Positions 1,805 to 27,911 are shown, numbered from the stretch's first letter. The stretch is DNA of 46,380 bases from an uncultured Candidatus Saccharibacteria bacterium (GCA_964446535.1 CAYUOR010000004.1:1-46380); one strand, 5' to 3'. Translations and numbers: made by a program. Notes: generated by a model not told the origin, from the letters alone.

Positions 1805-3709
1805 ATGGCAAAAATAATCGGCATAGATTTGGGAACAACGAACTCGGCTGTAGCAGTTATGGAGGCCGGCCAGCCGAAGATTATAGAAAACGCGGAAGGC
1901 GCGAGGACTACTCCGTCTATAGCCGCGGTTTCCAAGACGGGTGATCGCCTGGTCGGCCTTTTGGCAAAGCGCCAGGCTGTAACCAATCCTAAAAACACTA
2001 TTTTCGGCATCAAGCGCTTTATCGGCCATACCTTCTCCGATCCGGGCGTACAGAAAGATAAGACAACCGTGCCTTACGAGATTTCGGCCGCCGCCGATGG
2101 TTCGGTAATGGTAAAACTTGCCGACAAAGACTATCGACCAGAAGAGGTTTCCGCGATGATTTTACAGAAATTAAAGGCCGATGCCGAAGCCAAACTTGGT
2201 GAAAAAATAACCGAAGCCATCATCACGGTACCCGCCTACTTCAACGACGCCCAGAGAAAGGCGACTAAGGACGCGGGGCAGATTGCCGGCCTTGAGGTAA
2301 AAAGAATTATCAACGAACCGACTGCCGCCGCTCTCGCTTACGGCTTTAATAAAAAGAAGAACGAAAAAATTGCCGTCTTTGACTTCGGTGGCGGTACCTT
2401 TGATATCTCCATCCTTGAGGTTGGAGACGATGTTGTTGAAGTCAAATCAACCGATGGCGACTCACATCTTGGTGGTAAAGATATTGACCAGAAAGTTCTC
2501 AATTACATTGCAGAAGAATTTAAAAAAGAGTCGGGGATCGATGTGCGCTCGGACGCCCTTGCTCTTCAGCGCCTTGATGAAGCCGCAGAAAAGGCGAAAA
2601 TCGAACTCTCAACCGCCACCGAAACCGAAATAAATATCCCGTTTGTAACCTCCGACTCTTCGGGACCTCGACACCTCTTAATGAAGCTCTCAAGGGCAAA
2701 GCTCGACGAGCTTTCTCGCGAGTTTGTTGACCGCGCTATGGAAATCACCAAGCGCGCCATGGACTCCTCACCCTTTAAGACAGGCGATCTAAACGAAGTC
2801 ATTCTTGTCGGCGGACAGACGAGGCAACCTTTGATAGTTGATGCCGTCAGAAAATTTTTCGGCAAAGAGCCGAACAAGTCCATAAACCCGGACGAAGTCG
2901 TGGCTCTCGGCGCCGCTATTCAGGGCGGCATTCTTGCCGGCGATGTTAAGGACGTCCTACTTCTTGATGTTATTCCGCTTTCTCTCGGGATAGAAACTAT
3001 GGGTGGTGTCGCCACGAAACTTATAGAAAAAAATACGACAATTCCCTCGGCGAAGGCGCAGGTCTTCTCCACGGCCGCTGATAGTCAGACCTCCGTGGAG
3101 ATTCACATAGTGCAGGGCGAGCGCGCCATGGCAGGGGATAATAAATCCTTGGGTCGATTTATTCTTGACGGCATTCCGCCCGCTCCTCGCGGTGTGCCGC
3201 AGATTGAGGTTACTTTTGACGTTGATGCCAACGGCATCTTAAATGTTAAAGCGAAGGATAAGGCAACAGGCAAAGAGCAGTCTATAAGAATAGAAGCAAG
3301 CTCCGGATTATCAAAGGAGGAGATAGACAGAATGCAGAAAGATGCCGAAGCAAATGCCGCCGAAGATCAGAAGAAAAAAGATCTAGTAGACGCAAAAAAC
3401 TTGGCCGAACAACTTGTTTATACCGCTGAAAAAGCCCTTAAAGACGCGCCGACAGTACCGGAAGATATTAAAACCAGTGTTAATGACAAAATAGCGGCGT
3501 TGAAAAAAGACCTGTCTGCACAGGCAGGAAAAGATGGTGGCAACCTTGATTCCATAAAGGCCGCCTCTCAAGCACTCTCGACGGAGATGCAGAAAATCGG
3601 TGAATATCTTTCGAAGAATCCTCCGCAAGGGAATGAAGCGCCAAAGCAGGATGGCGAGGTCAAAGATGCTGAAATAAAAGAGGATAAAAAAGACGAAGAA
3701 AATAAATAA
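1805..3709 (+). CDS. dnaK: chaperone DnaK (Hsp70)
   Basis: [44 protein letters not shown]. Confidence 0.99.
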
Positions 3710-4596
3710 TGAAGGACTATTACAAAATCTTGGGAGTAGAAAAGAATGCTTCCGAGGAGGACATAAAGAAGGCCTTCAGGAAATTGGCGCACACTTACCA
3801 TCCCGATAAGGCGGGGGGTAACGAGGCGAAGTTTAAGGAAGTAAGCGAAGCTTACTCCGTGCTCTCGGATAAAAAGAAGCGTGCCCAGTATGACGCCTTT
3901 GGTCAGGCGGGTGCCGGTGGTTTCCAGGGTGCCTATGGCGGCGCTGGATTTAATCCTTCCGATTTCGGCTTTGATTTCTCCGGCTTTGGCAATGCCGGCT
4001 TTGATGCTGGGGATCTTGGCGATATTCTTTCTTCTATTTTCGGCGGTAGGCGCGTGAGACGCGGTCGAGACATCGCGGTTGATATCGAGCTTTCGTTTCA
4101 AGAATCAATTTTCGGCGCCGAGCGCAAGGTCGTGATAAATTCTAAATTAGTAAAACAAAAAGAAGTTTCTATAAGTGTCCCGCCCGGTATTGATGACGGA
4201 CAGATGATTCGTCTTAACGGCCAGGGAGAGCTTCTCGAAGGAGGGGTGCCTGGAGATCTTTACGTCAAAGTGCATGTTAGGAAACATCCCTATCTTAGGA
4301 AGGAAGGGTATAACCTCCTTATGGATTTGGAAGTTAAACTTTCCGAAGCCATCTTGGGTTCGGAACGCACGATTCATACTCTAGACGGGGAAGTTACTTT
4401 GAAGATTCCGGCAGGCACTCGCCACGGTACGATTTTAAGGGTGAAGAGTAAGGGCGTACCGTACGCCGCGTTACAACCCGGGAGCACCTCTAAAGCGCGC
4501 GGGGATTTATACATTCGCATTTCTGTCCAGATTCCCGACAAACTTTCTAAGGATACGAAGAAACTTATTGAAGAGCTTAAGAAACTCGGACTCTAG
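3709..4596 (+). CDS. dnaJ: DnaJ-family co-chaperone, class B (no zinc finger)
   Basis: J-domain with HPD, G/F-rich linker and C-terminal domain; no CxxCxGxG repeats; overlaps the dnaK stop. Confidence 0.9.
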
Positions 4597-5485: not shown

Positions 5486-5515
5486 TTGACACAATGGCTA
5501 GTTTTTCTGTATAAA
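5486..5515 (+). promoter_or_regulatory. sigma70-type promoter TTGACA-18-TATAAA
   Basis: TTGACA 5486-5491, TATAAA 5510-5515. Confidence 0.7.
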
Positions 5516-5561
5516 GTATGCAGATTTAGGTTTTTCTGTGAGCAACAAGGAGGTGAGAGAA

Positions 5562-5681
5562 ATGCTCAAGTTTTTCAGTCTGGTTGGCCCTGGAGACGAA
5601 GGTGACGACGGCGACGGGTGCGAACACGACGACTACGGCGAGGAGAGTGGTCCCGACTCTCCGCCGAACGATGATGGCTAG
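5562..5681 (+). CDS. small acidic protein, 39 aa (not in ORF track)
   Basis: AAGGAGGTGA SD at 5547-5556, ATG 5562; MLKFFSLVGPGDEGDDGDGCEHDDYGEESGPDSPPNDDG*; own promoter and terminator. Confidence 0.72.
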   Translation: MLKFFSLVGPGDEGDDGDGCEHDDYGEESGPDSPPNDDG

Positions 5682-5695
5682 CCGCCATCATCTCA

Positions 5696-5739
5696 GACGG
5701 GTCAGTACGGTTTAACCTAACTGACCCGTCATTTTTTTT
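5696..5739 (+). terminator. intrinsic terminator
   Basis: 11-bp perfect stem GACGGGTCAGT / ACTGACCCGTC followed by ATTTTTTTT. Confidence 0.85.
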
Positions 5740-6323
5740 ATGACATTGTCTGGTCCAATTTCTTCCGCCAATTCTTTTGCTCGAGTGTACTCTTTCGAAG
5801 GGTGCTTACTTTTTGGTGTTACGGCTATTTGCCATAGTTCTTCATCTAATACTTTTCTTAACACAGCATAAACAATCACGTGGTTATTTGTGGTAATAGA
5901 CTCTTTTTCATCAAATGTAAATCTCGGAACATTATTAATAGTCAAAATACGATGGACAAGCTCGTGTGTTAAAGATACAACGAACTCTTTCGGTGACAAA
6001 CCACTTTTTATTATTAAAGGGTGACTACAATCTCTTGGTGTGCCACTGACAATGTATACATCTATAACGTCTCTATTAAAAGACATATTTAAACACTTCG
6101 AAATTTTCTCTAACATCTTGTATTTACTCCACTCTTCTCTAAATGATGCAATTTTCTTATCTATTTGTTCTCTTGTCGGAGGGGTCCAAGTATCCCAGCC
6201 AAACTTTTTAGCATCAGGATAATTTTGACAGTAAAAAATAAAGAAAGGATCTATCAGCCGTCCGTACTGTATTAAGATTTTTGGCTCTTTCTTACTACCG
6301 AGAATTTTTCTTAGAAAGTCCAT
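5712..6323 (-). CDS. hypothetical protein with HExxH motif (possible zincin-like metalloprotein)
   Basis: LTHELVHR motif; likely start MDFLRK at 6323, 8 nt after TGnTATTCT (ORF track extends to 6386). Confidence 0.7.
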   Translation of the reverse strand: MDFLRKILGSKKEPKILIQYGRLIDPFFIFYCQNYPDAKKFGWDTWTPPTREQIDKKIASFREEWSKYKMLEKISKCLNMSFNRDVIDVYIVSGTPRDCSHPLIIKSGLSPKEFVVSLTHELVHRILTINNVPRFTFDEKESITTNNHVIVYAVLRKVLDEELWQIAVTPKSKHPSKEYTRAKELAEEIGPDNVIKKMTGQLG

Positions 6324-6390
6324 GATTAGAGAGAATATCACCGAAACTGCCTTTAAACAAGGATAAGTTCGGCGTGGTATTATCAACCAT

Positions 6391-7044
6391 ATGAATTCCT
6401 CTATGTCTGAACTGGGCTATATATTTACTCTAGGATCTTTGAATATCGGAATTGTGGAAACTCTTTTGTTTCTCGCTTCAGGAGTTTTCGGTGTTATAGC
6501 GTATCGGTTCTATTTTAAAGACATAGTTAATTCGGTAATTCGTCCAAACCGATGGTCGTGGCTTATTTTCTGTATTGCCACCCTGTTGGAAGTATTAACA
6601 TACAACGAAGTTTCTGGAGATTTAGTTAAATCATCTCTTTTCTTTATTTCCGCGGTTGCCACTTTTATTATTGCAGGACTTCTTTGGTCAAGATCAACAT
6701 GGAAAAAACCCGATTGGACAGAATTTATTTGTCTTGCGGCTTCCGTAATCTCTCTTGTTTTGTGGCTTGGTTTTCACGAAACACTTTGGGCCCATATTAT
6801 GCTGGTTATTGCAATACCAATATCGTTTATTCCTATATATAGAGACTCTTGGAACGATTGGCGTTGCGAGGATACTGTCGCGTGGCAACTATGGACGTAT
6901 GGAGATCTACTCGCGGTTTTCCTAGTTCTCACCAGGCTTGATAAGTTAGAAGAACTTCCATTTGCTATAGTCGAATTTTTGTCCCATGCGACGGTTTGGA
7001 TTCTCGTGAGTCGTGGTAAAAAATCATTAAATAAATCTTATTGA
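6391..7044 (+). CDS. polytopic membrane protein
   Basis: 217 aa with about 6-7 hydrophobic segments; TGnTATTAT 7 nt upstream. Confidence 0.75.
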   Translation: MNSSMSELGYIFTLGSLNIGIVETLLFLASGVFGVIAYRFYFKDIVNSVIRPNRWSWLIFCIATLLEVLTYNEVSGDLVKSSLFFISAVATFIIAGLLWSRSTWKKPDWTEFICLAASVISLVLWLGFHETLWAHIMLVIAIPISFIPIYRDSWNDWRCEDTVAWQLWTYGDLLAVFLVLTRLDKLEELPFAIVEFLSHATVWILVSRGKKSLNKSY

Positions 7045-7067
7045 CAACAGCGAGGTTTTGCTACAAT
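7041..7067 (+). promoter_or_regulatory. promoter for a leaderless transcript of the SET gene
   Basis: TTGACA 7041-7046, TGnTACAAT ending 7067, ATG 7 nt later. Confidence 0.6.
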
Positions 7068-7074
7068 GGGGTAG

Positions 7075-7593
7075 ATGGAGTTAAAGATTTTCGATAACTA
7101 CACTCTCGGAAAAAATCATTTAGGAAAAGCAGTCTTTGCGGCGAGAAATTATAAAAAAGACGATGTTATCGTCAAATTTGATGGACCAATTGTTCACAAA
7201 AATGAAGTTCCCAAAAATTTATTTAAACAAAACGATAGATACATGCAGATTAGCCCAACCAAATTTTTAGGTCCGTCTAACACAACTGACGATTTCATTA
7301 ACCACTCATGCAACCCAAACGCCGGTTTAATGTTTTACGACTTCGGTATTTTACTTGTGGCAATCAGGCCCATAAAGAAAGGGGAAGAAATAACTTGGGA
7401 CTATTCAACAACGCTATACAAAAACCCATGGACCATGGCATGTCTGTGCCGTTCAAAAAATTGCAGAAAGGTTATTAAAGAATTTAAATATTTACCAGAA
7501 AAAACTAAAAAAAAGTATCTAAGACTGCAAGTTCTTCCAGATTATATTGTTAAACAAATAAAAGGGGGTGTGCATAGTAAGAGTAAAAAATGA
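7075..7593 (+). CDS. SET-domain protein (putative lysine methyltransferase) with post-SET Cys motif
   Basis: GKAVFA, FINHSCNPNA, AIRPIKKGEEITWDY, CLCRSKNC. Confidence 0.92.
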   Translation: MELKIFDNYTLGKNHLGKAVFAARNYKKDDVIVKFDGPIVHKNEVPKNLFKQNDRYMQISPTKFLGPSNTTDDFINHSCNPNAGLMFYDFGILLVAIRPIKKGEEITWDYSTTLYKNPWTMACLCRSKNCRKVIKEFKYLPEKTKKKYLRLQVLPDYIVKQIKGGVHSKSKK

Positions 7594-7609
7594 GTCTATA
7601 ATGATAACC

Positions 7610-7804
7610 ATGAATATAAAAAAGGGGATTGAGCACCATTTTGCTTTCTGGTTCTTAGTATGGGTAATATATGCTCTTTCAATTGCACTTTCATTTGAGC
7701 GTATCTACATATCGCAAGATTTCCCCGTGTTTTACGCAGAAGAAGAAATACCAGATCCACTTACCCCTATTAGAGGACTTCTTGATCTTTTTACACCAAA
7801 ATGA
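7610..7804 (+). CDS. small single-pass membrane protein
   Basis: ATG 7610 lies 7 nt after TATAAT (7597-7602); hydrophobic FAFWFLVWVIYALSIALSF; ATGA overlap with the kinase. Confidence 0.6.
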   Translation: MNIKKGIEHHFAFWFLVWVIYALSIALSFERIYISQDFPVFYAEEEIPDPLTPIRGLLDLFTPK

Positions 7805-9426
7805 ACTGTGAATGGGATACCGCGCGGTTTCTGATTTTTTCTGACAACGGCATACCGCTCCTTTATTACTCTCACCTAACTTCTGTTGCAATCTTTATTG
7901 GTTTGTTTTTACTGACTTTTCTGAAGCTTAAACCATGGCCCAAGGGCGCATTTCGCTTAATGATTATTTCTTATGTGATATGGCTTCTGGGTGACCTTGT
8001 GCTTTGGGGTAATGAAAGGATGGATCATGTTATGTTTTTCTGGACCATTGTTAACCTTGTTGAGCCGATAATTTTCGCGGCCGCCTATATACACTTTGTC
8101 TCTTTTACAGATCAGAGAAAGTCAACCAACAAAGAGAAGATATTAATATTCATCCTATTAATCCCCACAGCAATAATGGCCCCGCTCGGCCTTTCGACAA
8201 TAGGCTTTGATTATACAAACTGTGACAGAAATGTCGTCGAAGGAATTGCCGCCTACTATAACTATTTTCTCGAGGCCATATTTATTGTCCTAATACTTGT
8301 ACATGCTGCAAAGAAGTTTATCTTATTAAAAGAACACCGACACCAAATATATCGCCTCGTCTGGGCAACTGGAAGTCTCGCCATACTCCTAACGTCGTTT
8401 TTGTTCGCCAACTTCTTTGGCACATATTTTGTTGCTTATGAAATAAGCCAACTTGGTCACGTTGCCGTCCCTATTTTTGCAGCCCTTCTGGCCTATATAA
8501 CTGTAAGATTTGACACCCTGGAATCTAGGATCTTGCTTATAGACGTTCTGACCTCAAGTCTCATTATTCTGATATTCTCACTTTTATTTATTAGAAATGA
8601 AGACGCACAAACTGTGGTTGTCTTAGTATCATTGGCCCTATCAATACCAATGGCCTATACTCTGATGTCTGGTATTAGAAAGGAAGTACACTCAAGACAG
8701 CGCATAGAACAACTCGCGGGCGATTTAAGGCGCGCCAACGAAGGTCAGCAGAATCTTATTCACATCATTAACCATCAGATTAAGGGTTACCTGGCGAAGG
8801 CGAGAAACATTTTCTCCGAACTTCTTGACGACCCGTCCTACGGCCCGATTCCTGACGCCTCCAAGCCGATGCTTGAAGAGGGTTTCAAGTCTCTTACCGA
8901 AGGTGTGGACTTCGTCAAAGACTTCCTGGACGCCTCAAATATTGAAAAGGGTTCCTACGCCTTTAGTGTTGTGCCTATAGATTTTAGAGAAATGGTTAAA
9001 GAAACAGCCGAGAAGCAGAAAACTCTGGCAGAGGAAAGAAAACTTTCCTATGAGGTAAAAATTGAAGACGGTGACTACAACACTAAGGGCGACAAGCTCC
9101 AGCTCGGGCAGGCGGTGAAAAATCTTATAGACAATTCTCTCCGCTACACTCTTGAGGGTGGAGTCTCCATTAATCTCTCTCGCAAGGACGACAAGATTCT
9201 TTTGTCTGTAAAAGATACTGGTGTCGGTATCTCGGAAGAGCTGAAGCCGAAACTTTTCACACAAGGTGGGCGGGATAAAAATTCAATCAAGATAAATATC
9301 AACTCAACCGGCTTTGGTCTCTCATTCGTCAAGTCTGTTGTCGAGGCGCACAAGGGTCGCGTCTGGGCCGAATCCGAAGGGGTTAACAAGGGCTCCACTT
9401 TCTACATGGAGTTACCCGTAACATAG
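7801..9426 (+). CDS. sensor histidine kinase with N-terminal multi-TM domain
   Basis: About 7-9 TM segments; H-box IINHQIKGYL; N box KNLIDNS, G1 VKDTGVGI, G2 STGFGL, GSTF. Confidence 0.93.
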   Translation: MNCEWDTARFLIFSDNGIPLLYYSHLTSVAIFIGLFLLTFLKLKPWPKGAFRLMIISYVIWLLGDLVLWGNERMDHVMFFWTIVNLVEPIIFAAAYIHFVSFTDQRKSTNKEKILIFILLIPTAIMAPLGLSTIGFDYTNCDRNVVEGIAAYYNYFLEAIFIVLILVHAAKKFILLKEHRHQIYRLVWATGSLAILLTSFLFANFFGTYFVAYEISQLGHVAVPIFAALLAYITVRFDTLESRILLIDVLTSSLIILIFSLLFIRNEDAQTVVVLVSLALSIPMAYTLMSGIRKEVHSRQRIEQLAGDLRRANEGQQNLIHIINHQIKGYLAKARNIFSELLDDPSYGPIPDASKPMLEEGFKSLTEGVDFVKDFLDASNIEKGSYAFSVVPIDFREMVKETAEKQKTLAEERKLSYEVKIEDGDYNTKGDKLQLGQAVKNLIDNSLRYTLEGGVSINLSRKDDKILLSVKDTGVGISEELKPKLFTQGGRDKNSIKININSTGFGLSFVKSVVEAHKGRVWAESEGVNKGSTFYMELPVT

Positions 9427-9451
9427 TTTTCTCACTTCTAGCCACCCCCTG

Positions 9452-9480
9452 TAGTCTAATTCGCGCGAATGGTAGAATAG
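9452..9480. repeat. 29-bp direct repeat, copy 1, with 12-bp palindrome ATTCGCGCGAAT
   Basis: TAGTCTAATTCGCGCGAATGGTAGAATAG; one mismatch to 9753-9781; contains the extended -10 of the arsR-like gene. Confidence 0.9.
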
Positions 9481-9484
9481 ATGT

Positions 9485-9760
9485 ATGAAAGACAGAGAAA
9501 TAGAAAGAGTATTGAAGGCTTTAGCCAACAAAAGACGCTTAGCTATTCTTGAGAGTTTGCGTAAAAACAAAGAGAAAAGCGTTGGAGAGATCGCCGACGG
9601 TATCAAACTATCATTTCGCGCCACCTCAAAACATTTATCAATCCTCGTAGGCGCCGAGATTCTCGATAGAGAACAGAGAAGCCTGCAAATGTTTTATAGT
9701 TTAAATAAATCAGCCCCGGACATAGTCAAACACCTTCTCCGCACTCTTTCCATAGTCTAA
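9485..9760 (+). CDS. ArsR/SmtB-family transcriptional regulator
   Basis: LKALANKRRLAIL, SVGEIA, ATSKHLSIL, FYSL winged HTH; no Cys. Confidence 0.92.
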   Translation: MKDREIERVLKALANKRRLAILESLRKNKEKSVGEIADGIKLSFRATSKHLSILVGAEILDREQRSLQMFYSLNKSAPDIVKHLLRTLSIV

Positions 9761-9781
9761 TTCGCGCGAATGGTGGAATAG
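9753..9781. repeat. 29-bp direct repeat, copy 2
   Basis: TAGTCTAATTCGCGCGAATGGTGGAATAG; overlaps the stop of the arsR-like gene. Confidence 0.9.
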
Positions 9782-9837
9782 TTTGAGTTGTGAGGTCGCG
9801 CATTTTGCTTGTATTTGTTTTGTGATAAAGTGGCGGC

Positions 9838-11967
9838 ATGAAAGGGTTTTTGGCCATATTTTTAGCCTTATTTTTACCGGTTTTTGCCTTTGCTGCGATA
9901 GAAAATCCTTATGTCGTTGACGAGAAACCTCAAGTAATTTTCGGCGACAGTGTACCTGTTCTCACTTATTTCGGACTAGAAAATTACACACAAGACTACG
10001 TAGGCGGCTATGCGCACATAACCTTTACATACACGCACCACTCGTGCTGTTTCGCTTCTTTTCCTCCGAAAATTTACGTAACTAATACTGATCCAAGTGC
10101 AACATCAACATCGATAATAAAAGCAAATGAACCCCTGTTTACACTCTTGCCATTCGCTCACCCAACAGATTGGTATTTATACGACATTCAGTTTGATGCA
10201 AGCGGATACACGATAAGTGTCAAACAATCCGGCGAAACAGAAATACTTAATGAGCATAGAGACATCGCTGATTTAGCCGATAGCGACTGGATGGCACTAG
10301 CAAACAACCATCCGAATGTTGGCAACAACCAGTCTATGGCGTTTACTCCTGTTCCTATAAGGGAGGTACCACAAAAAAATCCGGTAATAATTATTCCGGG
10401 AATTATGGGTTCAGCACGCAAAAACGACGCGCTGGTTATAGATCCAATCCTCCATACTTATGATGATTTAATTGCAACGCTTATAGCTAATGGTTATGTC
10501 GAAGGAACTGATTTATTTATCTTCCCGTACGAGTGGAGAGATTCAAATGTTTTCACTGCAAATCTTTTGGATGACAAAATAGACGAGATTAAATCCATGT
10601 GTGTTTGTGACAAAGTTGATATTGTCGCCCATTCAATGGGAGGGTTGGTGGCACGTGCATATATACAGTCGGTTGATTATGACAACGATGTTGACCAGCT
10701 AATATTTCTAGGAACTCCGCACAGGGGATCACCTAAGGCGTATTTACAGTGGGAGGCCGGTGAAAGTGACGTGGATGTAAGAGATCAAGTTATAAACCTG
10801 TTTTTCTCAGCTGAGGCGTTGAGAAATGGATACCTAACAGTTTTTAGTTATATAAGAAACAAGCCGATTTTATCTGTTCAGGAATTATTGCCAATATTTG
10901 ACTATATAAAGGACAGTGATACTGAAGTATTGAGAAGTTATCCGGCCAACTACCCAAGAAACTTCTTCTTGGAAAACTTAGACAACAACATCTCCAATCT
11001 TCTTAGTTCAGGTGTAGAAATCGTTAATTTTGTTGGGGATTCTGAGGAAAACAAAACAATTGAAGCAATAAGAGTTATACAAACCTCTCAACATCCGCGC
11101 TGGGAACATGGTGAACCAGAAGGGTTTAGTAATTCTTCCGGGGACAATGGCCTTGAAAGAGGTGTTGGTGATAATACCGTTACAACAATTGGTTCATCTC
11201 CCGATGGGTTTATTAGTGAGGAGATTGTGGCTTCGCACAATAGAATTCCAACAGTAGCGGCCAATAGAATCGTAAAAATTCTTACTGGCGAGGACTCAAT
11301 AAGCAACATTGACAATGGTTTAAATGTTAGTGCCAAGATCTTGCTAATGCAGCTTCTTTCCCCAATAGATGCATTGGTCACCGCTCCGGACGGTAAGAAG
11401 ATTGGAAAAGATTTTTCCAACAATACTGAATATGATGAAATTCCGTTCGCATTTTACTCTGGATTTGAAACCAACGATGAATACATAACGATTCTTAATC
11501 CACTTGATGGAGAATACAAGGTAGAAATACAAGGAACAGGTGATGGTGGAAAATATGAATTGCTAACAAGCTATGTCTCTGAAGAATTTGCTACTACCAC
11601 TAGTATCTCTGGTATTACCAAACCTAACCAATTAACAAATTTGAATGTTCGTGTAGATAACGAAAACCCAGAAGATCTATCTGCAGAAAGGGAAGTTACT
11701 TTAGAAATATTTATAGCAGACATAAATGGTGCTTATGATTTAGGCTGGATTACTGATAAAAAAACTAGGGATGCTTTAATAAAACAAGCAAACCTTATTA
11801 TTAAATTTGAATTAAAGAAGAATGGTAAAAAGGAAAGGCAAATAGATAAAATCATAATAAGACTATTGGAAAAGGAGCTGGATTTGTTACTTAAAAATGG
11901 TAGAATCAACCAAGAAGTATACCGGCTGTTAAAGGAGGATTTACTATATTTTATAAGTAATAACTGA
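9838..11967 (+). CDS. secreted alpha/beta-hydrolase (PGAP1/LCAT-like lipase or acyltransferase) with C-terminal accessory domains
   Basis: Signal peptide; PVIIIPGIMGS, YEWR, DIVAHSMGGLVAR nucleophile elbow, LGTPHRGS, GDNTV, SHN. Confidence 0.88.
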   Translation: MKGFLAIFLALFLPVFAFAAIENPYVVDEKPQVIFGDSVPVLTYFGLENYTQDYVGGYAHITFTYTHHSCCFASFPPKIYVTNTDPSATSTSIIKANEPLFTLLPFAHPTDWYLYDIQFDASGYTISVKQSGETEILNEHRDIADLADSDWMALANNHPNVGNNQSMAFTPVPIREVPQKNPVIIIPGIMGSARKNDALVIDPILHTYDDLIATLIANGYVEGTDLFIFPYEWRDSNVFTANLLDDKIDEIKSMCVCDKVDIVAHSMGGLVARAYIQSVDYDNDVDQLIFLGTPHRGSPKAYLQWEAGESDVDVRDQVINLFFSAEALRNGYLTVFSYIRNKPILSVQELLPIFDYIKDSDTEVLRSYPANYPRNFFLENLDNNISNLLSSGVEIVNFVGDSEENKTIEAIRVIQTSQHPRWEHGEPEGFSNSSGDNGLERGVGDNTVTTIGSSPDGFISEEIVASHNRIPTVAANRIVKILTGEDSISNIDNGLNVSAKILLMQLLSPIDALVTAPDGKKIGKDFSNNTEYDEIPFAFYSGFETNDEYITILNPLDGEYKVEIQGTGDGGKYELLTSYVSEEFATTTSISGITKPNQLTNLNVRVDNENPEDLSAEREVTLEIFIADINGAYDLGWITDKKTRDALIKQANLIIKFELKKNGKKERQIDKIIIRLLEKELDLLLKNGRINQEVYRLLKEDLLYFISNN

Positions 11968-11968
11968 A

Positions 11969-12331
11969 GTGAATAATGTTTTAAAAAATATTTTAGTTAC
12001 TTTATTCTCACTAGTCATAAGCTATTTTGTGGCTGATTATTTTGGTATTTGGTACACAACAATATTTGGCTATGGTAGTGCCTGGATAGGTAGTGAAGAA
12101 AGTTGGAATTTTATAATAGGATTACCGCTATCCTTATCTTTTTTTCTTACGCTCATTTTGAATACGTGGATATTTAAAAAAATTACTTCGACAGTGTGGC
12201 TGATATCACCATTAATACTTTATGAGGTAATAGTAGACATTCGTCATATTTATATAACACTTATTTTAATTATACTGGCTTTCAGTGTTTCTTCGCTTCT
12301 AAAAAAGTACTTTAATTTAACAACACAATAA
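11969..12331 (+). CDS. small 4-TM membrane protein (candidate immunity protein)
   Basis: GTG start 1 nt after the lipase stop; 120 aa, mostly hydrophobic; AT-rich. Confidence 0.7.
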   Translation: MNNVLKNILVTLFSLVISYFVADYFGIWYTTIFGYGSAWIGSEESWNFIIGLPLSLSFFLTLILNTWIFKKITSTVWLISPLILYEVIVDIRHIYITLILIILAFSVSSLLKKYFNLTTQ

Positions 12332-12332
12332 C

Positions 12333-12524
12333 CTAAAAAAGATAGAGAACCTAGAGAAGAAAATTACCAAAAAGAAAAAGAATGACAAGTCCCTCGAGGG
12401 TGTAAAAAGGAAAATTGGGAAGATTGTAGTAGGATTGGAGAGAAAAGCCGTAAAAGGTAAACTGTCCGACCAAGATGCTCAAGACATTACTAACTTGCTT
12501 GAGGCCCTCGAAAGTACGTTATAA
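12333..12524 (+). pseudogene. start-less C-terminal gene remnant 1
   Basis: Open 63-codon frame LKKIENLEKKITKKKKNDKSLEGVKRKIGKIVVGLERKAVKGKLSDQDAQDITNLLEALESTL*, no start codon; collinear with remnant 2. Confidence 0.75.
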
Positions 12525-12533
12525 TTTATAGAC

Positions 12534-12626
12534 ATGAAAAAAATAGTGATAATCGTGGGTTGTATTCTATTATTAGCGCTCCTGTTATATTGGTATCTAC
12601 TTAACAATACTGCACCACAGTTCTAA
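12534..12626 (+). CDS. 30-aa hydrophobic micropeptide (not in ORF track)
   Basis: MKKIVIIVGCILLLALLLYWYLLNNTAPQF*; ATG 8 nt after TATAAT 12520-12525. Confidence 0.55.
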   Translation: MKKIVIIVGCILLLALLLYWYLLNNTAPQF

Positions 12627-12686
12627 ACGGACTTCACCCTCCACCCTGGATTATTTGCGATCTAGTCTTGATTTAGTATGGAACCG

Positions 12687-12706
12687 TTCGCGCGAATGGG
12701 AGAATA
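12687..12706. repeat. third, partial copy of the palindromic repeat
   Basis: TTCGCGCGAATGGGAGAATA, 19/20 identical to 9460-9479. Confidence 0.8.
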
Positions 12707-12910
12707 AAGAAAAATCTCTTAAAAAAGCTTGATAACTTAGAAAAAAAGATAGAGAAGAAAAAGGCTAAAGGTAAATCATTAGAAGCCATAAAAAAGAGAA
12801 TTGAAAATATAATTAAGAATATAATGAAGAAAGAGGGACGAGGAGTTATAAACGAAGCTGATGCGCAGGAAATCACTACATTGCTAGAACAAATAGAAAG
12901 TGCGCTATAA
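12704..12910 (+). pseudogene. start-less C-terminal gene remnant 2
   Basis: IKKNLLKKLDNLEKKIEKKKAKGKSLEAIKKRIENIIKNIMKKEGRGVINEADAQEITTLLEQIESAL*; 32 of 63 residues identical to remnant 1 by manual count. Confidence 0.75.
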
Positions 12911-12919
12911 TTATAGAAT

Positions 12920-13306
12920 ATGAAATTTATAAAATTGTTTCTTATTCTATCAATAATTCTCTTAGTTTCTGGGTTTTTAATTTTAAATTCTGATATTCAA
13001 GCTGGTTCTACTGGAGAATTGTTAATCAGAGTCGGGAAAGCTCTTGTTTATGGTATGGGCGCTCTCGCTATTGTATTTTTGGTTTTACTGTCTGCCCAAC
13101 AAGCAGTTCCAACTTGGAAAAAATTTGCAAAATGGTATATACCATTTGCTACCCTTTTCTTCATCTTTTATTCTGATCCGGGTTCAGGAAATTATTTCGC
13201 CCCTTATCCAGAACAAGTTTTTAAATGGTTGAGTGGCATCTATGTTGTTGCGAGTTTCTGGATTATCGGCCGAGTCGTATTGAGCCAAAAACACACAAAT
13301 AGCTAA
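12920..13306 (+). CDS. small 4-TM membrane protein (candidate orphan immunity protein)
   Basis: 128 aa, hydrophobic; ATG 8 nt after TATAAT 12906-12911. Confidence 0.75.
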   Translation: MKFIKLFLILSIILLVSGFLILNSDIQAGSTGELLIRVGKALVYGMGALAIVFLVLLSAQQAVPTWKKFAKWYIPFATLFFIFYSDPGSGNYFAPYPEQVFKWLSGIYVVASFWIIGRVVLSQKHTNS

Positions 13307-13345
13307 AAATCTAAGGTAGAAAAATCTGGTATTATTGAGGGATAT

Positions 13346-14299
13346 ATGGCAGAGAAGAAGACTTTGGTTTCGGGAGTGAAGCCGACAGGGCGGCCGCATA
13401 TCGGCAACTATTTCGGCGCGATGAAGCAGTTCGTCGAGCTTGGCACCCTTTACCAGAGCCATATTTTCATCGCCGACCTGCACGCCCTGACCTCTCTACA
13501 GAACGGAAAAGAGCTTAAAGACAATAGTTTCGGAGTCCTCTTAGACTACCTAGCCATAGGGCTTGATCCGCAAAAGGTTTCTCTTTATAAACAGTCGGAC
13601 GTGCCGCAGGTGGCGGAACTCGCCTGGATTTTCAACTGCCTTACAACTATGCCGTACCTGATGCGTGGGCATGCGTTCAAGGATGCCGAAGCAAAAAATA
13701 AAGAGATAAACGTCGGTGTTTTTGATTACCCGCTTCTTATGGCGGCAGATATTCTTATCCAGGATGCAGACGTAGTACCTGTCGGAGCCGATCAGAAGCA
13801 GCACGTCGAGATTGCCCGCGACGTAGCGCAGAAGTTTAACAACACTTACGGCGAGACATTTAAATTACCCGAAGCGGTTATCTTAGACCAAGTCGCGACC
13901 GTGCCAGGCACGGACGGCAGAAAGATGAGCAAGAGCTACGGCAATACAATAGAACTCTTCGCCTCCGACGATGAGATTGAGCGCGCGGTTATGAGCATCG
14001 TCACCGACTCGACCAAAGATGTGCCAACGAATGTCTATGCAATGCACCTTCTTCTCCGCAAAAAGAGTGAGCTTGATAAGCTCTACGATGAAAAAAGAGG
14101 TAAGTATAAAGAATTAAAAGAGGCGCTTATAGAAGACTTAAAAAAACTTATTGGTCCCATGCGCGAGAAGCGAAAGAAACTCGAAGGTGACAAAAAGGCG
14201 GCACTCCAGATTCTTGAATCGGGCGGTAGGGTCGCCCGCCTCAGGGCCGAAAAGAAAATGGCGGAAGTAAGGGAGAAAATAGGTTTAACACTAAAATGA
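13346..14299 (+). CDS. trpS: tryptophan--tRNA ligase
   Basis: SGVKPTGRPHIGNYFGA, YPLLMAADIL, VPVGADQKQH, KMSKSYGN. Confidence 0.97.
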   Translation: MAEKKTLVSGVKPTGRPHIGNYFGAMKQFVELGTLYQSHIFIADLHALTSLQNGKELKDNSFGVLLDYLAIGLDPQKVSLYKQSDVPQVAELAWIFNCLTTMPYLMRGHAFKDAEAKNKEINVGVFDYPLLMAADILIQDADVVPVGADQKQHVEIARDVAQKFNNTYGETFKLPEAVILDQVATVPGTDGRKMSKSYGNTIELFASDDEIERAVMSIVTDSTKDVPTNVYAMHLLLRKKSELDKLYDEKRGKYKELKEALIEDLKKLIGPMREKRKKLEGDKKAALQILESGGRVARLRAEKKMAEVREKIGLTLK

Positions 14300-26690: not shown

Positions 26691-27911
26691 TTACTTTGAA
26701 AGAATTTCTATAGCTTTATCAAGTTGAGGGTCGCGTCCCGCCTTTCTGTCCTCGGCTGTGTATGGTACCTGGTATTCCGGAGTAATACCGCCGTCAGAAA
26801 TAGAAACGCCGTTTGGTGTCAGCCACCTGGCGATGGTAATTTTAAGCGAAGTCTCTCGGGTGATGTCTACAAGTTCTTGAACGGAACCCTTGCCAAATGT
26901 TTTTTCTCCGACAAGAACTGCCCGCCCGTGCTCAGCTAGCGCCCCAGCAAGGATTTCGGAAGCAGAGGCGGAACCACCGTCTATTAGTATCGCGAATTTT
27001 AAATCGTCGGAGAAAACATCGTAGCCCTTACTGCGATACACCTTCTCTTCTCTAGAGCCGCCGAAGTCTTCTCTGACCACCACCTTACTTGACGGTAGAA
27101 ACCAGCTCGCCATATCTATAGCCGCCTCAAGGTATCCTCCCGGGTTGTTTCTAAGGTCAAGAATCAGTTTGTCGCTTTTCGAGACCAAAAATTCTCTAAG
27201 AGCGCTTCGGAACAGGTTCGGTGACTGCGCGGAGAAGCTGTAAAGTTCTATGACAAATACGCCACCCGGGAGTTCCCTTGTATTGATGGTCGGAATATCT
27301 ATAACCTCCCTTACTACTGAAATTTCAAGCGGTTCAGAAGCCCCCTCTCTTATGACGGTGAGTTTAACCGCGGTCCCCTTTGGTCCGCGAATAAGTTGTA
27401 CTGCGTCTTCCGTTGAGAGCTTAGCGGTATTCTTATCGTCAATTTCAATAACTCTGTCACCAGGGAGAATTCCAGCGCGAGCCGCCGGAGAATCTTTGAG
27501 GGGTGCGACAACAGTGATGGCGCCATTTTGCGCCACTACTTCCATACCGACACCCTCAAAGTTGCCCCTAATATCGGCTTGGAACAGCTCTGACTGGACC
27601 GGAGGAAAGAATACCGTATATGGATCACCGAGTGCATCGGTCATTCCGGAAATGGCACCCCAAATACGCTCCTGGTCACTTACACGCTCTGTTGATGTGC
27701 CGGCCGGCACAAACTTTTCATTAAGAAGATTCCATGCTCTCCAAAACGGCGAGAAGTCTACACCCAGCGGTTCGCCTTCCGCCATATTTTCAATACCGAC
27801 AATAGTTCCGGCGCCACTCTTCTCACTAGCTTGAAGTCCGAGATTGTATCCCCCTACGGCAATAATAACTCCGAGAATAAGGAGTGCTGAATGCTGTCTA
27901 AAAAATTCCAT
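26691..27911 (-). CDS. ctpA: carboxy-terminal processing protease (S41, PDZ)
   Basis: LGDPYT, FEGVGM, PDZ domain, LDLRNNPGG, SASASEI, GEKTFGKGSVQ. Confidence 0.94.
   Translation of the reverse strand: MEFFRQHSALLILGVIIAVGGYNLGLQASEKSGAGTIVGIENMAEGEPLGVDFSPFWRAWNLLNEKFVPAGTSTERVSDQERIWGAISGMTDALGDPYTVFFPPVQSELFQADIRGNFEGVGMEVVAQNGAITVVAPLKDSPAARAGILPGDRVIEIDDKNTAKLSTEDAVQLIRGPKGTAVKLTVIREGASEPLEISVVREVIDIPTINTRELPGGVFVIELYSFSAQSPNLFRSALREFLVSKSDKLILDLRNNPGGYLEAAIDMASWFLPSSKVVVREDFGGSREEKVYRSKGYDVFSDDLKFAILIDGGSASASEILAGALAEHGRAVLVGEKTFGKGSVQELVDITRETSLKITIARWLTPNGVSISDGGITPEYQVPYTAEDRKAGRDPQLDKAIEILSK

Follow-up and report, generated by a model that had tools for sequence, protein, structure and literature searches.

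Orphan cassettes of a toxin tip and its immunity gene are known from polymorphic toxin loci; the cdiA-CT/cdiI orphans of contact-dependent growth inhibition (CDI) systems and the displaced tips of Rhs proteins were reportedly described by Poole in 2011, Zhang in 2012 and Koskiniemi in 2014. Pairs of a lipase and an immunity protein are also already well known. In the Tle/Tli pairs of the type VI secretion system (T6SS), an alpha/beta-hydrolase lipase is encoded next to a small gene and orphan or duplicated partner genes occur; the Tli proteins are periplasmic or lipoproteins. TslA of Staphylococcus aureus is a lipase that depends on a secretion system of type VII (T7SS) and has small helical partners, and its immunity protein is the DUF576 lipoprotein TilA, encoded 5' of the toxin gene (PMC10730906). 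Here we analyze a stretch of 46,380 nucleotides (nt) from an uncultured Candidatus Saccharibacteria bacterium (GCA_964446535.1, CAYUOR010000004.1:1-46380), referred to as the window at its full length. Between positions 9838 and 13306 it carries a gene for a secreted lipase, small membrane-protein genes and two start-less gene remnants, a layout that an earlier note on this DNA had likened to polymorphic toxin loci and to Tle/Tli pairs. Our comparison indicates that the remnants are the 3' ends of genes for a second class of lipase, left behind by cassette replacement, and that these ends carry a putative promoter for the membrane-protein gene that follows.

The likeness to polymorphic toxin loci is extensive. 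A large secreted multidomain protein has a small cognate gene directly 3', here type-specific; incoming cassettes displace the resident one, and 3' fragments, each with a small gene, pile up downstream. Such orphan modules are present twice in the window and in the loci L029, L024, L031, L032 and L045 (L numbers denote fetched loci). The loci differ between close relatives, and mobile-element and restriction-modification (R-M) genes lie nearby. In contrast to polymorphic toxins, the fragment retained here is a non-catalytic helical tail and not a toxin domain, so that the orphans cannot recombine back into a new toxin, and this fragment carries the putative promoter of the partner. Export would proceed by a Sec signal peptide, no type V, VI or VII secretion system being seen adjacent in the window or in syntenic loci, and the toxin role is a putative one in a monoderm, ultra-small member of the Patescibacteria.

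The parallel with Tle/Tli pairs holds as a functional likeness, whereas family membership does not: the Tle3 Pfam profile scored 13 bits against a cut-off of 27 (E 0.072), no T6SS was seen, and the partners here are polytopic membrane proteins and not soluble proteins or lipoproteins. With TslA/TilA the locus shares a lipase domain N-terminal to a helical C-terminal domain, a variable copy number of the immunity gene, the polymorphism of the toxin and a phospholipase acting from outside the cell (PMC10730906). Unlike TslA, the lipase here has a signal peptide, and its four-helix membrane partner is encoded 3', behind the tail. What is new here is the host clade, the predicted Sec-only export, the tiny polytopic partners and the non-catalytic tail retained as carrier of a putative leaderless partner promoter. 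Literature searches found no description of this lipase/partner system.

Origin of the gene remnants

The class to which the resident lipase belongs is called type A, and a second class of secreted LCAT-like lipases, 770-1250 amino acids in length, was named type B. Both remnants lie on the plus strand. Remnant 1 (12333-12524) holds 63 codons and a stop codon and remnant 2 (12701-12910) about 66-69 codons and a stop codon; neither has a start codon within its first half. They align without gaps over their common part with 32 invariant columns (51% identity), in agreement with the earlier description of two collinear, start-less 63-codon remnants.

A word-indexed protein search with the remnant alignment gave no match. 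An exhaustive profile search with both remnants against 1.84 billion representatives retrieved 55 proteins at E ≤ 1e-3 (best 5e-12), and nearly all of the approximately 50 matches inspected were C-termini or C-terminal fragments of LCAT-like lipases. The parent proteins are 750-1250 amino acids (aa) long and often contain the motif, termed tail B, twice in tandem. A pattern scan for tail B gave at least four loci. The 905-aa lipase of L004 ends in ...LKKVDDLEKKIEKKFKKDKSLETVKKRIENLIKIIVKKEKRSVLSEADVQEIIILLEQVESAL and the 818-aa lipase of L005 in ...LLKKIENLEKKIEKKKAKDKSLETIKKKVGNLIKRILKKEEKSVVSEADAQEIIKLLEQIENAI, each followed directly by the stop codon. Remnant 2 shares 70% aa identity with both of these C-termini. 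Remnant 1 had its best blastp match, at 52% identity, in the tail of L005, and phmmer aligned it to residues 841-905 of the 905-aa L004 type-B lipase with 37 bits. Together with the collinearity of window 12705-13490 with L004 and L005, these matches identify both remnants, at the level of sequence, as 3' ends of type-B lipase genes. Full-length type-B lipases as a class failing to end in the remnant sequences, or close strains with remnants lacking type-B ancestry, were looked for and not found. Thereby the full-length parent hydrolases that the earlier note had proposed to look for were recovered, and their downstream gene belongs to the same membrane-protein family as the one in the window.

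Tail B may be a distant relative of FIMAH (PF22888), a small helical domain of secreted hydrolases. One tail-B repeat of protein P0229 (residues 719-795) aligned over 78 of the 81 profile positions with 17.1 bits, below the cut-off of 24.8 (E 0.0086), and the window remnants gave no Pfam FIMAH match. This likeness is taken as a lead and not as membership.

Cassette replacement at the regulator-trpS site

The variable locus is delimited by a gene for an ArsR-type helix-turn-helix (HTH) regulator on the left and by trpS (13346-14299, plus strand), its conserved right flank. The closest syntenic contigs derive from Patescibacteria/Paceibacteria-type metagenome bins. TrpRS of the window is 95%, 92% and 83% identical in aa sequence to that of L004, L005 and L003 (a type-A locus), respectively, and the HTH protein is 89% identical to that of L005 and 66% to that of L003. 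In L004 and L005, a homologue of the 128-aa membrane protein encoded at 12920-13306 (mem128) lies directly behind the 905-aa or 818-aa LCAT-type lipase gene and directly before trpS. Judged by these flanks, the type-B cassette of L004 and L005 occupies the same chromosomal site as the window array.

Window 12705-13490 is collinear with the lipase 3' end, the partner gene and the start of trpS of L004 (78.5%) and L005 (74%). In blastn, 12706-13494 matched L004 with 78.5% identity, and 9446-9953 and 12705-13486 matched L005. The stretch 9456-12256, covering the regulator gene, the lipase gene and most of the four-transmembrane-segment (4TM) gene behind it, matched L003 with merely 69% identity; in L003 the type-A lipase and 4TM genes are followed directly by trpS, and no remnants are present. 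The breakpoints of homology are thus placed near 9953 and near 12705; on the left, the exchange ended within sequence that both lipase classes have in common. In the lipase of L005 (2535-4991), and likewise in L017 and L028, a type-A-like signal peptide and N-terminal beta-sandwich are joined to a type-B core and tail. The lipase genes are therefore mosaic, and domains appear to be shuffled between classes A and B.

The comparison shows the window lineage as one in which a type-A cassette appears to have replaced a type-B lipase body and left remnant 2 with its intact partner gene behind; remnant 1 and the 30-codon stub that follows it (12534-12626) appear as an older, decaying unit. On the simplest reading, the ancestor would have carried the HTH gene, a type-B lipase gene, mem128 and trpS, and the type-B body would have been replaced by the arriving type-A cassette or deleted after its arrival. 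The comparison of arrays between strains, which the earlier note had called for, showed that their content differs between close relatives. When metagenomes were scanned with TrpRS, no close strain came up (the best match had 73% identity), and one of 80 loci had a lipase gene beside trpS.

A putative −10 box within the lipase 3' end

In both remnants a TATAAT hexamer (12520-12525 and 12906-12911, plus strand) holds the TAA stop codon, and exactly 8 nt lie between it and an ATG (12534 and 12920, respectively). An exact TATAAT starting 12-17 nt ahead of the mem128 ATG was present in 30 of 43 distinct loci, with one-base variants in several others. By chance this arrangement is expected in 0.3%. 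When all open reading frames (ORFs) of 100 aa or more in these loci were counted, it occurred in 11.6% with the mem128 genes included and in about 5% once they were left out. Tail-B lipase genes end in an NTA codon in 30 of 32 cases, compared with 27% of internal Leu/Ile/Val codons; 28 of 32 have TAA as stop codon, and in 26 of 32 a T comes next. Selection on the hexamer as DNA is strongly supported by these biases in last codon, stop codon and next base.

Many of the TATAAT copies are preceded by TGn, as in an extended −10 element. The hexamer covers positions −12 to −7 or lies as much as 5 nt farther upstream, with no Shine-Dalgarno sequence in the gap. This spacing fits a leaderless or near-leaderless partner mRNA with a predicted transcription start. 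The comparison strongly supports the view that the extreme 3' end of the type-B lipase gene holds a −10 box (NTA-TAA-T, read as TATAAT and frequently preceded by TGn) 6-11 nt before the partner ATG, so that the partner would be transcribed alone from this box, and that the non-catalytic tail would survive displacement because it is the promoter of the partner gene. The earlier suggestion that a retained non-catalytic tail supplies the promoter gains support from the conservation of TATAAT and from a codon choice pointing to DNA-level selection. The further suggestion that each unit consists of tail, promoter and cargo is also supported, with a TATAAT conserved across about 40 genomes; remnant 2 is followed by an intact mem128 gene, whereas the cargo of unit 1 is truncated to a 30-codon stub and is not a full membrane gene.

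Seven window ORFs with a length of 80 aa or more are preceded by an exact TATAAT, which starts 12-17 nt ahead of their ATGs at 530, 12920, 19530, 32922 and 38299 on the plus strand and at 27911 and 32900 on the minus strand. Two divergent gene pairs are among them, and there is no room for a Shine-Dalgarno sequence. Leaderless-type promoters seem to be common in these genomes, and a leaderless TATAAT promoter may be a frequent architecture of gene starts there. A terminator scan of the window found none.

Small membrane partners and lipase types

Hidden Markov models (HMMs) of tail A, tail B, the 4TM family and mem128 were run on six-frame translations of all fetched loci. The intact mem128 gene of the window (12920-13306, plus strand) encodes the orphan type-B partner and has 106 homologues, the closest in L004 (80% identity) and L005 (63%); its conserved motif is WKKFA...PDPGSGxxFxPYPEQ. 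The AlphaFold2 (AF2) model of mem128 is a four-helix bundle of membrane helices with short loops (predicted local distance difference test score, pLDDT, 89), and Foldseek gave no meaningful match to it (best E 0.58). By the positive-inside rule, the most conserved loop, PDPGSGxxFxPYPEQ, would face outward, toward the secreted lipase. The 120-aa 4TM-family partner of the type-A lipase (11969-12331, plus strand) starts with a GTG 1 nt past the lipase TGA and has four hydrophobic segments by sequence. Neither the 120-aa nor the 128-aa partner matched a Pfam family, and a common origin of the two was tested and rejected (hhalign probability 6%).

Of 41 genome loci found through mem128, about 33 have the mem128 gene 10-20 nt downstream of a large ORF with tail B at its end. 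In L019, L033 and L039 it follows a type-B hydrolase body without tail B; the partner therefore tracks the enzyme and not just the tail. Every tail-A lipase gene examined (window, L001, L003, L024, L029, L052, L054, L055, L056 and L062) is followed by a 4TM-family gene after 0-12 nt, and these loci, of which 8 are distinct, sit in several different genomic contexts. Cross-pairs of tail A with mem128 or of tail B with a 4TM gene were absent among the loci examined. The pairing of membrane genes with hydrolase variants, on which the earlier reading depended, is thus type-specific in these loci. It shows at least two cassette types that appear to be unrelated, a tail-A lipase with a 4TM protein and a type-B lipase, usually with tail B, with mem128. 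Other tail-B lipases carry further small membrane families (L007, L009 and L031). Genome scans for the 4TM family found no locus with one alignment and three loci with another, two of them previously known.

The stub behind remnant 1 (12534-12626, plus strand) contains one hydrophobic helix and was assigned by its position 8 nt behind TATAAT. It is probably the truncated 5' end of a partner gene. Assignment to the mem128 family was attempted and given up, as its family score equals that of a control transmembrane (TM) helix. An A-AAA-AAG heptamer near the end of the 4TM gene was considered as a frameshift site joining remnant 1 and was rejected by eye: a −1 shift meets a stop codon after three codons, and remnant 1 lies in the other frame.

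The type-A lipase

The resident 709-aa lipase (9838-11967, plus strand) has an N-terminal signal peptide, a central catalytic core (residues ~180-470) and a C-terminal tail A at about residues 619-709. Its Pfam scores were 49.8 bits for LCAT (cut-off 21), 44.1 for PGAP1 (24.3), 35 for Palm_thioest (26.8) and 22.3 for Lipase_2 (20.3). We found 1286 homologues, and those with a named source come from Patescibacteria/Paceibacteria-type metagenome bins. The AHSMGG motif (A264-H-S266-M-G-G), D445 and H467 are invariant across 42 homologues, and we infer that Ser266, Asp445 and His467 form the catalytic triad. In the AF2 model (pLDDT 78), a beta-sandwich N-terminal domain is followed by the alpha/beta-hydrolase core and then by a beta domain of Ig-like type, and the chain ends in a helical tail. 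Foldseek matches of this model to BlEst2 (7e-10), LCAT (1.6e-6) and family I lipases (about 1e-5) identify it as a true lipase fold, as far as the prediction goes. Among relatives of solved structure, Bacillus LipA, in which the AHSMG elbow is also present, is the closest in sequence. The catalytic core, the Ala-His-Ser-Met-Gly nucleophile elbow and the fold are thus common to this protein and to LCAT/PGAP1/Bacillus LipA-type lipases; it differs from them by the additional N-terminal beta-sandwich, Ig-like domain and helical tail, and by its obligatory downstream membrane gene. Tail A (...AYDLGWIxDKK...KINEQAYNLIKxDLEYLINN) ends 114 of the 120 best homologues, and tail B ends none of these 120.

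Orphan units in other genomes

Orphan units were found in at least five other genomes, two of the tail-plus-partner type and three variants. In L029 the type-A lipase and 4TM genes are followed by a 25-codon tail-B remnant, mem128, a 52-codon tail-A remnant and a second 4TM gene. The array of L024 (identical to L053) begins with the type-A lipase and 4TM genes; then come a decayed, TATAAT-bearing tail-B remnant, mem128, a tail-A remnant of 24 codons and a second 4TM gene. In L031 a lipase gene and a different small membrane gene precede an IS200-like transposase gene, a double tail-B remnant and mem128; in L032 the gene for a 1117-aa lipase and, again, a different small membrane gene precede a tail-B remnant and mem128. 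In L045 a type-B lipase gene and mem128 are followed by genes for a methyltransferase and a MutH-like nuclease and by a second mem128. L026 possibly carries an array as well. Nine of ten orphan partner ORFs are intact, and the tails are trimmed to 24-170 codons, toward their promoter-proximal end; the exception among the partners is the 30-codon stub of window unit 1. The ratio of nonsynonymous to synonymous substitution rates (dN/dS) of mem128 is 0.09-0.13 with dS saturated, and because of this saturation it cannot separate a recent orphan from a selected one.

Genes for IS200-like Y1 transposases lie in or beside the arrays of L024 (1843-2490, Y1_Tnp E 1e-9) and L031 (3283-3954, 8e-17); a further IS200-like transposase gene in L026 (299-973) was judged by N-terminal similarity only. 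The two mem128 copies of L045, which agree in their C-terminal parts over the stretch inspected, enclose the genes for an N6/N4 DNA methyltransferase and the MutH-like nuclease (2959-4402). In L029 a gene that resembles a DNA methyltransferase gene by sequence lies just past the array (2954-3781). In this the L045 and L029 loci resemble variable or defence islands. Hairpins with a T-run, similar to terminators, occur after the first 4TM gene, ahead of the orphan units, in L029 (1000-1030) and L024 (756-780). The window has no such hairpin after its 4TM gene, where remnant 1 begins right at the stop codon.

The ArsR-type regulator and a palindromic motif

The HTH gene (9485-9760, plus strand) encodes a 91-aa winged-helix regulator of the ArsR family (Pfam HTH_5, E 6.9e-9) and is syntenic beside the lipase gene in L003, L005, L055 and L062. 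The 20-mer TTCGCGCGAATGGNRGAATA, composed of a perfect 10-bp palindrome (TTCGCGCGAA) and an extended −10-like box (TGGTAGAAT), has three exact matches in the window compared with none in 100 shuffles. All three are on the plus strand. Copy 1 (9460-9479) lies 5 nt ahead of the HTH ATG, copy 2 (9761-9780) between the HTH stop codon and the lipase start, and copy 3 (12687-12706; TTCGCGCGAATGGGAGAATA) at the upstream edge of remnant 2. At the HTH gene, TGGTAGAAT is followed by 6 nt and the ATG. The motif is found on both sides of the HTH gene in L005 (2158, 2468), L062 (5621, 5922) and, with variants, L003 (5614, 5935). In L055 a single copy stands immediately 3' of the HTH gene (6307), and in L004 one precedes the lipase gene (125).

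The motif is probably an autoregulated operator/promoter. We propose that the ArsR-type regulator controls the locus via the TTCGCGCGAA operator, the third copy of which now stands before remnant 2 and the orphan gene; owing to this copy, both are predicted to be possibly still under its control. Copies 2 and 3 are direct repeats that bracket the type-A lipase gene, the 4TM gene, remnant 1 and the stub. This arrangement suggests either that the cassette entered by recombination at the motif or that a deletion in the type-B gene ran from a point just downstream of its promoter to its tail.

Two further observations concern the motif. In L058 (768-3980) a kinase gene, a gene for a 150-aa protein, the motif (2949) and trpS follow each other with no HTH and no lipase gene, and this locus is possibly an empty site. 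In the window, about 60 nt of GC-richer sequence between the stub and copy 3 (12627-12686) weakly resemble the region upstream of the HTH gene.

Possible roles of lipase and partner

The best explanation overall, and one that we judge fairly probable, is a polymorphic lipase locus of a Paceibacteria-like member of the Patescibacteria, with cassette replacement, a tail-borne partner promoter and putative roles for lipase and partner. The lipase would be exported by Sec and attack membrane lipids of the host or of competitors, possibly harvesting lipids too, and the small membrane partner would shield the producer's own membrane. Orphan partners would be kept as protection against the type-B lipases of neighbours. 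That the partner is an immunity protein and the lipase a toxin is, on the present evidence, about an even call. For immunity speak the strict type-specific pairing, a promoter of the partner's own, several unrelated partner families and mosaic enzymes. The cassette turnover between near relatives, the nearby transposase and R-M genes, the intact orphans beside decaying tails and the presence of the partner behind tail-less type-B bodies point in the same direction.

Several observations weigh against this explanation. Toxicity of the lipase and protection by the partner are deduced from gene arrangement and sequence. Tli and TilA, the known lipase immunity proteins, bind the catalytic domain and are either soluble or lipoproteins; the partner here, by contrast, is a tiny polytopic membrane protein matching no known family or fold, and its gene adjoins the tail and not the catalytic domain. 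Secretion-system genes were not seen adjacent in the window or in syntenic loci, where a signal peptide is the sole export feature. In L057 a type-A core is combined with a B-like tail, and no small partner is present. Purifying selection on orphan mem128 after displacement is not demonstrable with dS saturated. Finally, a consensus promoter scan left the TATAAT sites uncalled because there is no −35 element at 16-18 nt; TTGCT(A/T) is found upstream of these sites at a 19-nt spacing, and the overall promoter count of the scan equals chance.

Patescibacteria, also referred to as the Candidate Phyla Radiation (CPR), live attached to other cells. The partner might instead be a receptor for the tail, an anchor or an export helper at the cell surface, with a lipase that scavenges host lipids and orphans that are recent, functionless debris. 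We regard this as unlikely, yet as the strongest of the alternatives; other roles of the partner take up what immunity and such an anchor or helper function leave. Tail and partner families co-vary, and the partner gene abuts the tail. In the TslA system, the genes beside the C-terminal helical domain encode tail-binding secretion partners and the immunity gene lies beside the lipase domain (PMC10730906), an arrangement that favours the anchor and speaks against immunity. Scavenging would also fit CPR bacteria, which have no lipid synthesis and are rich in lysolipids (PMC7242380), and the remnants look recent, with open frames and a dN/dS of 0.1 at saturated dS. However, mem128 also stands behind the type-B bodies that lack tail B (L019, L033 and L039), and the intact orphan ORFs are spread over at least five independent genomes, their tails whittled down to the promoter-proximal part. 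A conserved promoter of the partner's own and polymorphism between near relatives are, moreover, typical of conflict systems.

Lif proteins, the steric chaperones of family I.1/I.2 lipases, have one TM anchor and a large periplasmic helical domain. A lipase-specific foldase of this kind is a very improbable identity for the downstream gene product, even if the structural neighbours of the lipase include Pseudomonas and Burkholderia lipases (2es4, 9g8u) with a foldase gene immediately downstream: the partners have 115-140 aa compared with about 300 aa of a foldase, mem128 consists almost entirely of four membrane helices, several unrelated partner families exist, and orphan copies without a lipase would make no sense. 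A last alternative, that the remnants arose from the resident tail by duplication or divergence (the earlier note had found a weak resemblance to this tail, GRINQE and GVINEA) or are chance lysine-rich open frames, can practically be discounted. In its favour, both tails are K/E-rich helices ending in G-x-I-N/S-x-x, and phmmer gave weak matches at type-A C-terminal ends (E 0.008-5, 120-sequence database). Against it, the remnants score 3-4 bits with the tail-A HMM, hhalign of tail A against tail B gave a probability of 4%, and remnants 1 and 2 are 52% and 70% identical, respectively, to type-B C-termini, remnant 2 being contiguous at the DNA level with the L004/L005 type-B locus. Homology of the remnants to tail A was put to three tests and rejected, and the hexapeptide likeness is compositional.

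On the explanation favoured here, that of a polymorphic lipase locus with tail-borne partner promoters, the locus is a concrete candidate for lipid acquisition, harm to hosts or competition in CPR bacteria. The secreted lipases form a large and widespread family (>1200 homologues), and a small membrane partner is firmly coupled to each of them. The replacement of cassettes, the orphan partners and the mosaic genes form the population-genetic signature of a conflict system, and a promoter inside the 3' end of a displaced gene is a simple way for orphan cassettes to stay expressed. The wider generalization is more tentative, and we rate it somewhat below even: that Patescibacteria run a Sec-dependent polymorphic lipase toxin/immunity system in which mosaic lipases attack host or rival membranes, unrelated four-helix immunity families confer type-specific self-protection, and leaderless tail promoters drive the immunity genes. 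Cassette turnover would then automatically leave expressed orphan immunity genes behind and build immunity islands under an ArsR-type switch.

Surroundings and base composition of the locus

The coordinates given earlier for the lipase gene, the 4TM gene, the remnants and the TATAAT boxes all checked out in the sequence. About 80 nt of non-coding sequence separate the stub from remnant 2, and aspS follows trpS at the right end of the locus. Scans for tRNA genes and Rfam families gave no match in the array region. The tract had also been described as markedly AT-rich, in line with a GC content of 0.30-0.32 across 11501-13000 compared with about 0.46 for the window. To the left of the HTH gene lies a sensor kinase gene (7801-9426, plus strand), and the genes upstream of it (5500-8500) are likewise low in GC (0.35-0.41). 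Given this low GC, the variable, possibly acquired, region may extend beyond the lipase array.

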